Assembly: GCF_006345805.1 (NCBI RefSeq)
Contig: NC_043011.1
Coordinates: 40,498,464-40,562,463, forward strand
Origin: Octopus sinensis
Taxonomy: Eukaryota
Direction: 5' to 3'
Length of the DNA stretch: 64,000 nt
Positions 7,010-61,316 of this stretch are shown here, one piece after another. Both the position numbers and the translations under genes were made by a program. Under the pieces are notes generated by a model, which saw only the letters and a program-made list of their open reading frames with translations, was not told the origin of the DNA and searched no databases. Numbering within the stretch: position 1 is the first letter of the stretch; each line of letters opens with the position of its first letter.

Positions 7010-7190
7010 GATAGATTGCTAGCCACTACACATTATGTTCTCTCCTTGTTTCTTTTAGTGTTCCTTTCTGTGGAAGAGCGTAGGCTCGAAACGTTTTTAC
7101 TTCCCGGGCGTTAAACTAATACGTCTGTTTGTTATCTACACCACCTGTCTTCATTTTTTGTTTGTTTTTTTTTGCGATTTCTCCACCCCT
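7010..7190 (+). mobile_element. ~200 bp (TA)n-embedded element carrying a variant hammerhead (copy 1)
   Basis: cttt-CTGTGGA-A-GAGC-gtag-GCTC-GAAACGT at 7064-7095; homologous to copies at 9250, 58261 and 61108. Confidence 0.75.
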
Positions 7191-7239
7191 ATATATATAT
7201 ATATATATATATATATATATTATATATATATATATATAG

Positions 7240-7497
7240 TGGAGGCGCAATGGCCCAGTGGTTAGGGCAGGGGGTGGTGGTGATCCCTGCTGTACTCTTT
7301 CACAACAACTTTCTCTCACTCTTACTTCCTGTTTCTGTTGTCACTCTCTGTGTCACGCTGAATATCCCCGAGAACTACGTTAAGGGTATACGTGTCTGTG
7401 GAGTGCTCAGCCACTTACACGTTAATTTCACGAGCAGGCTGTTCCGTTGATTCGGATCAACCGGAACCCTCGTCGTCGTAACCGACGGAGTGCTTCC
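7240..7497 (+). mobile_element. tRNA-derived SINE family C, internally deleted
   Basis: Head ggaggcgcaatggcccagtggttagggcag shared with 35218; 3' part shared with 41440-41585 (minus). Confidence 0.75.
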
Positions 7498-7526
7498 ACA
7501 CACACACATATATATATATATATATA

Positions 7527-8562
7527 TCGCTCCTTCCAAGTCCAAGTTAATGGTTCGCGGTCCGACGTCTCCAGTGCGAGCAGTGGCGTGCCTCAAGGTT
7601 CAGTGCTTGGGCCCTTGTTGTTCTTAGTCTTCATAAATGACTTGCCCGACGACCTCACGCAACACACCCTTCTATTTGCCGACGATATCAAACTGGTCGC
7701 TCCTCGCGGTAATATAGAGGATCTTCGTCGATGCCTCCACCAAATTTGGAAGTAGTCTAAGAATTGGGACCTGTGTCTGAACGTGTCAAAGTGCTGTCAT
7801 CTGCCTGTCGGCTCTACTCCTGCAACTCAACTTGATTTCGAGCCGGGTCGTCTGCTGCTGGAGAGGACCGATCAGGTAAAGGACCTAGGTATCTTGGTGG
7901 ATTCCTCCTTTTCGCCTTCGGCCCAGTGCGTCCATGCTGCCAACAAAGCACGCGGAATTCTGTTCTTGATTCGACGGTCATTCGGAATGCTCACAGCAGC
8001 CATATTCCTACCACTCTATGTCACGCTGGTGAGACCCATATTGGAGTATGGGATTCAAGCCTCTTCTCCTTATCTCCTCAAAGACATACAGCATCTCGAA
8101 AGAGTCCAGAAGCTGGCTACCCGCATGGTTCATGGTCTCAAAAATTTGTCCTACGAAGAAAGGCTGAGGACGCTCGACCTTTATTCTCTTGAAAAACGCC
8201 GCCGCCGTGGTGATCTCATTCTCGCCCACAACATCATAAGCGGAAAGTGTAACCTCTCGAAAGAGCTGTTCTTCACTCCTGCTCCAGAGCGTCGGCTGCG
8301 GGGTCATTCCGAAAAGCTCTACCTGCGACGATTTCATCTCAATCGAAGGAGAGGAGCTTTCTCCGTCCGGGTTGCGGATCCGTGGAACAAGCTGCCAGAC
8401 GAGATGGTGAAGATGCCGACGACCGCTTTGTTCAAAGCCTCCCTTGACCTCAAGTGGCCTGAACTCTTTACATGAACACCACCCTGTACTTAACTCCATG
8501 TCCCCCTACATGGCCTTGCTATTTGCTTTTGAGCCAAATTAACTAACTAACTAACTAACTAA
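7527..8562 (+). mobile_element. 5'-truncated CR1-clade LINE (RT C-terminal half, 3'UTR, (AACT)n tail)
   Basis: [81 protein letters not shown]; one in-frame TAG at 7753-7755; stop at 8475; (aact)n at ~8540-8562. Confidence 0.95.
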
Positions 8563-9249
8563 CATATATATATATATATATGATCCGATCCAAAATTTGA
8601 ATAGAAACATAAGTAAGGAACAAATGAAGAAATTTACACTCGAAAACTAATACGACACTGATAAAATATGTATACAATATACAAACATAATAAGGCTGTG
8701 CGACTCTAAGACAAGACGAGCACAATGGAAAAAGAAAATGTCTGGTAGGACTGGAAACGAGAAAGGTAACAATTGACGAGGAATGAGCAGCGTCATAAGT
8801 GTGAATCTCCAGCTTGTTCCTTTGTTGTTTCAGGTTAAATTTATGTAAGGCTTTGCGCCATTATATATATATATTGGTGCTTAGCGTTACATTTAGCATC
8901 GAATAGAGAATCACTCGATAACATTTGAAGAGTATGTATTTATAATAATTTTAGATATTTATTGTAACCGAACTCTCCTATAAAGCTAAGAAGAAAAAAA
9001 CTGTCACACTTCTTCTAAAAGTATACTATATATACGTGTGTGTGTGTGTGAGTGTGAGTGTGTTTTCTAAGTTAATATATTTTTGTGTAGCCTGAAATGT
9101 CAAGCAGCAAGGAACTGGATAGCGTTGGAGTGAATAATCAATTTCCAGTGAATGAATGAATAAATCATCAATACATCCACTTATTCATCCATTCATCCAT
9201 ATAAGTATATATATATATGTATGTATATATGTATGTATGTATACATATA

Positions 9250-9562
9250 TGGAAGTTGGACCGGCGAACTCAACAAGTCTATTTTCATTCTCTCTCTATT
9301 TGTTTTCTCATATTCCTTTCTGTTGAAGAGCGTAGACTCGAAGCGTAAAATACTTTTTCAAATTTTCCGTGCGGCAAACTAATACACTTACTTGTTGTTC
9401 ATAAACTTGTCTTCATCTTTCATTTTTCAACTATGTATATATATATATATATATATATATACGTTAAAAACTTTTTCACTTCCCGAGCGTTATACTAATA
9501 CAACTGTTTGTTGTCTACACCACCTGTCTTCGTCTTTTGATTTTTTGTGTGAATTCATCCTA
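9250..9562 (+). mobile_element. Variant-hammerhead element copy 2 plus a tandem 3' half-copy
   Basis: cttt-CTGTTGA-A-GAGcgtagaCTC-GAAgCGTA-aaa at 9316-9351; second partial copy at 9461-9562 after a (TA)n spacer. Confidence 0.7.
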
Positions 9563-58417: not shown

Positions 58418-58848
58418 TTCTCTTTTACTCTTTTACTTGTTTCAGTCATTTGAGTACGGCCATGCTGGAGCACCGCCTTTAGTCGAGCAAATTGACTTAT
58501 TCTTTGTAAGCCTAGTTAGTTATTCATCAGACACTTTGGGCCGAACCGCTAAGTTACGGAGACTAAAACACCAGCATCGGTTGTTAAGCGAAGTTGGGGA
58601 GCAACAACACTGACACCAAACACACACTCACACACCACACAACCAATATATATATATATATATAAATATATATATATATATATATACGACGGGCTTCTTT
58701 CAGTTTCCGTCTACCAAATCCACTCACAAGGCTTTGGCCGGCCCGAGGCTATAGTAGAAGGCACTTGCCCAAGGTGCCACGCAGTGGGACTGAACCCGGA
58801 ACCATGCGGTTGGCAAGCAAGCTACTTACCACACAGCCACTCCTGCGT
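58418..58848 (-). mobile_element. SINE family B
   Basis: Near consensus. Confidence 0.9.
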
Positions 58849-59464
58849 GTATATATATATATATATATCTTCAGTGTACATCCATTTGACTTTTGTTGCT
58901 TTTGTTATATTTAATAATAGTCTGAGTCCGTTCCAAGCAATTTAGTACTTCGTAGCTGCGTCAAACGAATCTAACATGTCAGGCTCATATATTCATAACC
59001 CAGTTTTGACTTTTAGCTGCTTATTCGATTTGTTTCAAAAAGTGATTTTTGTGAAGCGAAAGAGAACGGCAACTTTCGATACAATTTTGACGTCGGCTAC
59101 ATTTTCGTTATTGCTTTGAAGCTGACAGACTGTGACCTATATACACAAAGCCTGTCACTTGTTTTATTGATGTTTCATGTAGTATTCCTTGTGTCTAGAT
59201 GCCTAACGTTGGCTGTGTCTTATCTGCAATCATGCATTTAGTCCCGTCACGATTAATTCGGAATCCATCTTGTCTCAGGATGTCAGCTTAGTGATTGATT
59301 TTAGTTTAATATATATATATATATATTAATATTATATATATATATATATATTATATATATATATATATATGTATATGTATGTATGTATGTATAAAATATG
59401 GATATATATATATATATATATATGCATATATACACACAAACTTATATGTACATACATACATACA

Positions 59465-59789
59465 CATGTATGAGTACAGGATGTCACAAACCCTAAACAT
59501 GAAATACGAAAACAAATGAGTTGAGTAAGCAAACAACGAGAGAAACAAATGGAAAACAGGACAAGTAACATAAAGAACGACCCTTCATCAGTTGTCGGCT
59601 GTCCATCTACTCCACTGTCGTTCAATGCTTGAGATGAGGAGTAGATAGACAGCCGACAAATGATGAAGGGTCGTTTTTTATGTTACTTGTCCTATTTTAC
59701 ATTTATTTCTCTTGTTGTTTGCGTACTCGACTCATTTGTTCCCGCATTTCATGTTGTTTACGGTTTGTGACGTCCTGTACCCATATATG
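59465..59789. repeat. Long imperfect palindrome (~150 bp arms, 24 nt loop)
   Basis: Arm 59465-59613 is the reverse complement of arm 59638-59789. Confidence 0.95.
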
Positions 59790-59869
59790 CAAATATATAA
59801 ATGCGGTGCTGAAAAGTGAAGTGAGCGACATTGTACTAGTTGGCATCGAACTCCTCAAGAAGCATTCTA

Positions 59870-60735
59870 TTCTTGATTATCTCCTATACAGCCCTAAAAC
59901 AGCTGGGCTCTCCTACCGCAAAGAAGACCTGGATGGAAAGCACTCAGCATGCAAAAAATAGACTATGCATAGGTATGTTGACCGGAAGCCCGAAGAAGAC
60001 AGTAGAATTGACACGAAGTGGAGCCTCTATTGGGCACAAGACCACTACATCACATCACAGTTTGAAGGCTATGCGTTTGCAATTCAGGAACAGGAGGTTG
60101 CCACAAAGTACCTGGTGAACAAGAGAGAAACAGCGAAGCTCTTGTAATCTCAAGGTGCAACCGCATGTGTAGGCTATGTCATGTTTCTGTGGAAGACATC
60201 ACGCACGTGATTAGCAGCTGTCCTAAAATGTCGTCCCGGTACTACCTCCCTATGTGGCACGATGTTGTCGCTTTTTACAATGCCATCCGCAAAAAAGACT
60301 CCTGAAATAAACTTAGAAAATCCCTCTCTGGTGGAATATATTCATAAACACCAACTCAAGGAATACTGGTGGAATATTCTCATCAAAACTTCTGTCAAAT
60401 GTAAACATAACAGGCCGGATATTGTTGTTTAGGGCAAAGGTATGCACCGTCATAGAGGCCAGCTGCCCTGCAGATATAAATATCTTATTGTAAATCAAAG
60501 AAAAAGAGAATATCTATGGACAATATCTAGTGCCTCCTTCTTGTGAGAGGTTTGAAACCTCATACTGATTTTTTAAAAAAAGAAAATATGTTTTCGAGAA
60601 AAATCCAATCGGCGGGTGTTGGGTTTCGTCTCTCATTTATTCATTTTATTTCATTTTCATTCATTAATGTGTCTGTCTAGCCCGCAAAGCTACCCAATCT
60701 ATGTACTGTCTTCATGACAAATTTTATGAAATAAA
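59870..60735 (+). mobile_element. 3' part of a second R4/Dong-like LINE family
   Basis: FEGYAFAIQEQEVATKY, CRLCHVSVEDITHVISSCPKM..WHDVV, EYWWNILIKT..HNRPDIVV, IEASCPAD, KEKENIYG; frameshifted; probable 3'UTR to ~60735. Confidence 0.85.
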
Positions 60736-61107
60736 GTAGCTTGCTTACCAACCACATGGTTCAGGGTTCAGTCCCACTGCGTGGCACCTTGGGCAAGGGT
60801 CTTCTACTATAGCCTCAGGCCGACCAAGCCTTGTGAGTGGATTTGATAGATGGAAACTGAAAAGAAGCCCGTCGTTTATATGTATATATATATATATATA
60901 TATATATATTATATTAAATTAGAGACAAAACCACTATTAGGCAAATCATACAATGAAAAACTTAAGCCAATACATAAGATTATTTAATTTATAGTGGTTT
61001 TGTCTCTAATTTAATATAATATAATATTTTACTATAAAATTGGATTCAATCCTAAATCTGATTTTTCCCTGTAAGTTTGGATTTATTCCCTAATATTTAT
61101 TATTATC

Positions 61108-61316
61108 GCCATGTTGATTCGTTAGCTACTGCACGCATTTTTTTCTCTCCTTCTTTCTGTGTTTTTCTCTCTCTGTGTATCTTTCTGTTGAAGAGCGTAG
61201 GCTCGAAACGTTAAAGACTTGTTTTATTTATATTTCCTGAGCGCCATACTAATACAATTGTTCGTTTGTTTTCCACCTGCCTTCGTCTTTTGTTTATTTT
61301 CATAAAGCTTCCCGTT
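61108..61316 (+). mobile_element. Variant-hammerhead element copy 4 (best preserved)
   Basis: TCTTT-CTGTTGA-A-GAGC-gtag-GCTC-GAAACGTT-AAAGA at 61180-61217; lies in the internal microsatellite of a SINE B (60736-60875 and 61370-61590). Confidence 0.8.

Follow-up and report, generated by a model that had tools for sequence, protein, structure and literature searches.

Minimal type I hammerhead ribozymes have been known since 2014 from the pseudo-long terminal repeats (pLTRs) of metazoan Penelope-like elements (PLEs) (Cervera and De la Pena 2014, PMC4209133). These motifs are characterized by (i) a short stem I, (ii) an extra base between positions 9 and 10.1, (iii) a G10.1-C11.1 pair and (iv) a palindromic ACGU for stem III; there is one motif per pLTR, and many copies are solo 3' ends. 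In the published model, the two pLTR motifs of one transcript pair via the palindrome and are cut after H17 (PMC4209133). As to whether the elements need these motifs to cut RNA, low in vitro activity has been reported (PMC4209133) and their function has been called unclear (PMC8557442). Here we describe a family of such motifs in Octopus sinensis, followed up from a 64,000-nt stretch of contig NC_043011.1 (positions 40,498,464 to 40,562,463, forward strand; hereafter the window). The octopus motif has all of the features listed above, so the class is not new; what sets it apart is a core in which U is fixed at position 6 in place of A (A6U).

The 56 motifs in Fig. S3 of PMC4209133 all carry A6 (56/56), with core variants only at positions 3 and 8, and no cephalopod row is present in that figure; its Acropora digitifera Neptune row comes close to the octopus motif in stem II and ACGU, a likeness that bears on the Neptune clade only indirectly. 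Small PLE hammerhead variants reported by Lunse et al. (2017), as summarized in PMC6765202, likewise have a diminished stem III, cleavage as dimers and a PLE context. No natural A6U hammerhead was found in the literature searched, which did not include Lunse 2017, the likeliest source of such variants; the main text of an octopus repeat annotation from 2026 is silent on ribozymes (PMC13282606). The nearest described core variants are the natural A6C hammerhead of phage Bcep176, also changed at position 6 and with low detectable activity, and U4C of a viroid, a change also present in an octopus sister family (PMC3088659, PMC7151607). Those are single or rare full-size hammerheads, whereas the octopus A6U motif is of the minimal, dimer type and occurs in more than 13,000 copies of an active element. 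Non-LTR (long terminal repeat) retrozymes (PMC7229834) also place a type I hammerhead in an animal repeat, but they are described as non-coding tandem units of 170-400 nt with canonical hammerheads, unlike the octopus motif, which ends a coding element.

The window contains the following features of this family:

7011..7191, + strand: copy 1, G7-type subfamily; motif at 7064-7095, 3' strand of stem I deleted.
9288..9435, + strand: copy 2, old subfamily type; motif at 9316-9351, with stem II, position 15.1 and stem I decayed.
~9463..9570, + strand: fifth fragment, missed by the original prediction, 5'-truncated within the motif and starting at ACGU.
58261..58352, + strand: copy 3 (C7); motif at 58261-58298, truncated inside stem I, loop decayed to GCCG.
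61107..61317, + strand: copy 4, a 5'-truncated 3' end (pLTR) assigned to the youngest Neptune-type PLE subfamily, ending in (TA)n and matching the pLTR of long copies, e.g. L266.
61181..61216, + strand: intact minimal type I hammerhead motif of copy 4, read from the sequence; the same 36 nt occur in 26 of 30 loci picked by their nuclease domain.
61185 (C3), 61188 (U6), 61193-61204 (stem II) and 61208-61211 (palindromic ACGU), + strand: parts of the copy 4 motif, read from the sequence.
61212, + strand: U17 of copy 4, after which hammerhead numbering places the predicted scissile bond.
61213..61317, + strand: tail of copy 4, ~105 nt, from the predicted cut to the common 3' end, which precedes (TA)n in most of 30 loci.

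Re-reading of the window confirmed the four copies where the original prediction had placed them, each with CUG-U-N-GA-A and with G, U, C and U, respectively, at position 7. The minimal type I layout that it described is intact in copy 4 (stem I CUUU/AAAG, stem II GAGC/GCUC, followed by GAA-ACGU-H). Stem I is damaged in copies 1-3, as it had stated, by decay or truncation particular to each copy; in copy 2, stem II contains a mismatch as well, and GAAG replaces GAAA. The supposed GUAG/GCCG variation of the stem II loop did not hold, since GCCG is decay of copy 3 alone and GUAG is the commonest loop in 6 of 6 subfamily groups. A search of Rfam with copy 4 alone gave no match even at E<=10, and a scan of the window yielded only microsatellite-driven miRNA matches among the 150 of 266 matches listed.

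The 30 loci picked by the motif vary in their 5' extent but have a common 3' end ~105 nt past position 17, in most cases at a junction with (TA)n. Longer copies run upstream through a repeat-rich 3' untranslated region into a frame in which a reverse transcriptase (RT) with DKG and YIDD motifs precedes a C-X4-C-X2-C zinc-finger linker and a GIY-YIG-type nuclease. RVT_1 was matched at 32.0 bits (cut-off 29.6) in a 1009-aa stop-to-stop frame; the GIY-YIG scores (16.9-21.2 bits) lie below the 22.6 cut-off, although the motif is visible. Of 8000 scored, 903 were homologues at E<=1e-30; most of those listed carry RVT_1 and some GIY-YIG. The 150 nuclease matches scored of 16,224 candidates all share 98-100% identity, several of them in open frames of 800-1009 aa, which shows that the element was mobile very recently. 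The U6 motif lies downstream in 26 of 30 nuclease-picked loci, and in 7 of 14 long copies another motif on the same strand (C6 in one case) is found within a 5' direct repeat, 3.8-4.5 kb upstream. Such direct repeats, with the motif at both ends, constitute partial-tandem pLTRs of variable length.

A single frame with RT and C-terminal GIY-YIG nuclease defines an endonuclease-positive (EN+) PLE, and the linker before the nuclease together with the (TA)n flanks corresponds to the Neptune/Nematis type. The Neptune/Nematis elements (Craig et al. 2021, PMC8557442) share with the octopus element the single frame, DKG, RT, the CX2-5CxxC linker, the C-terminal GIY-YIG with CCHH-like residues, partial-tandem pLTRs and (TA)n targets; they differ in that the hammerhead core is non-canonical in octopus. 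We therefore regard the host as a recently active, autonomous PLE, its Neptune/Nematis type being set by linker and (TA)n and the accompanying tree holding this genome's copies only. In that tree (10 rows, midpoint root) the U6 copies group together in a single clade, separate from the sister family; old and young U6 copies are ~73% identical in their coding DNA. In L266 (4369-4990), a pyrimidine-rich leader of ~620 nt lies between the 5' pLTR and the likely frame start; like other PLEs, the element may possibly have an intron here. The contigs matched to the element (their RNA origin is a guess) showed no splice joint, this leader included.

According to the original prediction, the copies belong to a non-autonomous, retrozyme-like family of ~200 bp built on a variant ribozyme. 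Most copies are indeed short and devoid of coding sequence, and animal retrozymes are reported to derive from PLE pLTRs (bioRxiv 10.64898/2026.07.22.740005). However, the copies have no fixed 5' end and are 5'-truncated pLTR ends in direct continuity with the RT-GIY-YIG frame, and the window holds no short tandem arrays of the unit, the genome not having been searched for a separate tandem 170-400-nt subfamily. We give this reading almost no weight, and for these copies a non-LTR retrozyme, i.e. a non-coding 170-400-nt tandem unit with no linked frame, is refuted.

U at position 6 is the state of the family. Exact 27-nt pattern searches of the 2.72-Gb genome gave 13,318 matches with U6, 140 with A6 and 334 with C or G6 (U6 = 96.6% of 13,792), and the family thus departs at A6 from the canonical core CUGANGA. 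The reversed pattern gave 0 matches, so the motif is not due to chance. The U6 count rises to 16,929 when other loops are allowed, and a strict descriptor applied to 400 kb of arbitrary stretches recovered 2 intact U6 motifs, a density about the same as that of the exact 27-mer. Copies were also chosen without regard to the motif, by their flanks: 91 tail matches in 90 loci (13 without the motif, 1 cut in the loop) and 30 older-subfamily loci together gave 107 copies, 99 of which have U6 (3 A, 4 C, 1 gap). The proposal that U6 is shared by the family is thereby borne out. Each of the four N7 backgrounds includes A6 copies, as expected of sporadic decay, and the non-U6 copies follow the ordinary decay pattern. 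None of the six sampled groups is an A6 subfamily, although 140 exact A6 copies exist. In a hand count of the first 100 matches of the old U6 subfamily, C6 was found 14 times and A6 4 times, which exceeds mutation at neighbouring U positions; a minor C6 lineage possibly exists within this subfamily.

Comparison of six hand-defined subfamily groups revealed that the commonest letter differs at only 2 of 36 motif columns. These are N7, where all four bases occur, as the claim that position 7 is free would have it, and H17 (A/U), i.e. the two free hammerhead positions; H17 is never G in any group, and the core residues C3, G5, G8, A9, G12, A13 and A14 are kept across all of them. In the tail, 35 of 94 columns differ, a contrast that is partly circular because the groups were defined on the tail. 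In an upstream stretch unused for grouping, 11 of 34 columns differ (five groups, 58 of 77 copies being long enough), and the difference between 2/36 and 11/34 (Fisher p=0.005) indicates, by comparison of sequences, that the motif is under selection. Another reading takes the motif for a neutral relic that has travelled with the 3' end of an element that spread well. In its favour, few master lineages were sampled and individual copies decay freely; the contrast with the independent flank disfavours this explanation, which we consider highly improbable.

A Neptune-like sister family (12,031 matches in the genome) has stem II, ACGU and the tail in common with the U6 family and keeps A6. Half of its sampled loci (15/30) have the canonical core and the other half (15/30) U4C; its loci include L119, L122, L129, L280, L283 and L284, and in one subfamily U4C is combined with C17 and a disrupted stem I. 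The covariation proposed as a test in the original prediction was found in stem I and not in stem II. One stem I pair, C-G in U6 copies, is G-C in the sister family, both sides being changed in 10 of 24 rows through one inherited event; all four stem II pairs (4/4) are invariant, in an alignment chosen with a pattern that fixes stem II. Paired cells make up 96.9% of 192 in the alignment, and the motif has stems I and II, a bulged base after A9, G10.1-C11.1, a palindromic 15.2-16.2 and H17.

Metagenome relatives, defined as motifs with the same stem II and ACGU, number at least 119 among the matches listed; 114 of these have A6, 3 have U6 and 41 have U4C. Among these matches stem I covaries between families, and the commonest motif is very similar to the Neptune row given for Acropora in Cervera 2014. 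The pairing, the stem I covariation and these relatives uphold the hammerhead ancestry and PLE-type minimal architecture. A6, said in the original prediction to be normally conserved, is indeed the usual state elsewhere, being the norm in the sister, the metagenome and the published motifs, so that U6 is derived and, within what was sampled, particular to this lineage.

Published changes at position 6 reduce activity and need not abolish it (PMC3088659, PMC7151607): in the measurements reported, natural A6C has a kobs <0.1/min (PMC3088659) and Mn2+ rescues it to near wild type (PMC7151607). Fold prediction gave a probability of 0.96-0.97 for a pair between 6 and 15.1 in the U7 subfamilies. The predicted probability of an open core is 0.016 with U6 vs 0.082 for a naturally occurring A6 copy from the same subfamily, and 0.009 vs 0.177 in the old subfamily; the predicted monomer fold is a rod. 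Convergence of U4C and A6U on one locking helix found no support, since U4C left the core unclosed in its own background. An alternative register U3-U4-G5-A6 (UUGAAGA) was rejected, as it exists only in U7 subfamilies and breaks G10.1-C11.1.

Points of 5' truncation were used as a proxy for cleavage, as copying of cut RNA should give short insertions starting at position 1.1. For the youngest subfamily, the count of such starts is 22, vs 9, 11, 13 and 5 at four further TA sites (p=0.002 relative to all of these sites, 0.09 relative to the highest, with TA microhomology as a confounder). A hand count of the first 100 rows (94 loci) gave 18 starts exactly at position 1.1 and 10 at the loop TA. 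Genome-wide, the excess at the predicted cut is 2-fold in this one subfamily and absent in the others. In some short copies (G000:C2:131812460, C5:107853691, C5:60782209, C3:62152660) the 5' junction repeats ~10 nt just 3' of the predicted cut, which resembles RT stuttering there. The contigs of guessed RNA origin cover the motif and much of the frame and bridge the predicted cut with no end pile-ups; they are uninformative on cleavage and expression.

Starting from the observed element structure, the paired motifs of long copies (7/14), the fixed U6 and the selected motif, we infer the cutting behaviour as follows. The motif would be the terminal-repeat hammerhead of an autonomous Neptune-type PLE, in a lineage where A6U was fixed long ago and the other motif positions were retained, and it is likely a slowed, dimer-dependent ribozyme; this is the explanation we favour, with about even confidence. 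In a more-than-unit transcript, two motif copies would pair through ACGU and be cut, rarely, after position 17, giving a unit-length RNA and perhaps a circle. The ~105-nt tail is the likely priming end for target-primed reverse transcription, and frequent cutting would strip off this 3' tail, from which every insertion starts, so that a weak ribozyme might be tolerated or favoured. The predicted cut lies ~105 nt inside the common 3' end, an anatomy which suggests that templates are mostly uncut or religated. U6 could weaken the ribozyme by two routes: (i) loss of the A6 contacts and (ii) an added U6-A15.1 pair, by which the core of the monomer would be zipped onto ACGU, the site of dimerization.

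Alternatively, U6 may be a fully functional core in vivo, rescued by Mn2+, by the element protein acting as a chaperone, or by a GUAG-loop contact. The Mn2+ rescue of A6C (PMC7151607) and the activity of the U6 lineage across ~0.2-0.3 changes per site of coding divergence speak for such a core. Nearly all copies, however, keep the tail 3' of the predicted cut, which implies that most templates were uncut or religated, and no compensating core change accompanies U6; we judge full function to be unlikely.

Several observations weigh against a slowed but active ribozyme. In pairwise mutagenesis of a type III hammerhead, the C3-G8 swap was the one reported exception to low activity among mutants of the CUGA region (PMC9901934), even canonical PLE motifs cut poorly in vitro (PMC4209133), and Naiad PLEs are described as spreading without canonical hammerheads (PMC8557442). 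The 6:15.1 lock is weak in the C7/A7 subfamilies (P 0.41-0.81) and frequently missing in G7 (0.00-0.37), and a core just as closed is predicted for the canonical motifs of the sister family (open 0.003-0.013). In the A17 subfamilies, the predicted cut has 10 starts, the neighbouring TA 8 and the TA of the loop 12, the last count leaving out 2 rows of another subfamily. About 63% of the tail columns are also unchanged, so that constancy singles out no selection on U6 itself, and loop II is invariant too, which fits protein binding equally well.

In the main rival explanation, the motif no longer cuts, being kept as a folded signal bound by the RT-nuclease or as an RNA dimerization site, with A6U fixed after catalysis had ceased to matter. 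The strong impairment of position-6 mutants in published assays (PMC9901934, PMC7151607), the lack of an A6 subfamily among the six groups, the impairing U4C in half of the sister loci (some with a broken stem I), the invariant loop II and the predicted rod are all consistent with this possibility, which we take seriously but consider rather doubtful. It is opposed by the finding that the only columns changed are the two free in catalysis, with G never at H17, by the fixation of C3, G8, A9, G12, A13 and U16.1, which are unpaired in the rod, and by a modest surplus, in one subfamily, of copies that begin at the predicted cut.

If the slowed, dimer-dependent ribozyme is the correct explanation, a U6 hammerhead might be switched on only by dimerization, Mn2+ or the element's protein. 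We suggest, as a tentative extension, that PLEs tune down their own hammerheads (by A6U here and U4C in the sister), keeping the rest of the core and sparing the priming tail; the octopus motif would then perhaps be the first natural A6U hammerhead that is both selected and active.

Other repeats were seen in the window. A further hammerhead-like motif, with no relation to the U6 family, lies at 63960-63915 (- strand); its core is canonical, its stem II has 2 bp and its palindromic stem III is longer. A decayed hammerhead-like motif at 3733-3775 (+ strand) has canonical CUGAGGA, a 4-bp stem II and GAAG for GAAA, and a large array of 35-bp tandem repeats in inverted blocks, with fold-back matches, occupies 21084-23353.

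The octopus genome offers matched natural canonical, U4C and A6U versions on one scaffold, in thousands of copies each, with the A6U element very recently active by the identity of its copies. Descriptor searches that require CUGANGA miss the entire U6 family. This family would reveal either a new active core or a very successful PLE that keeps the hammerhead fold without its chemistry.

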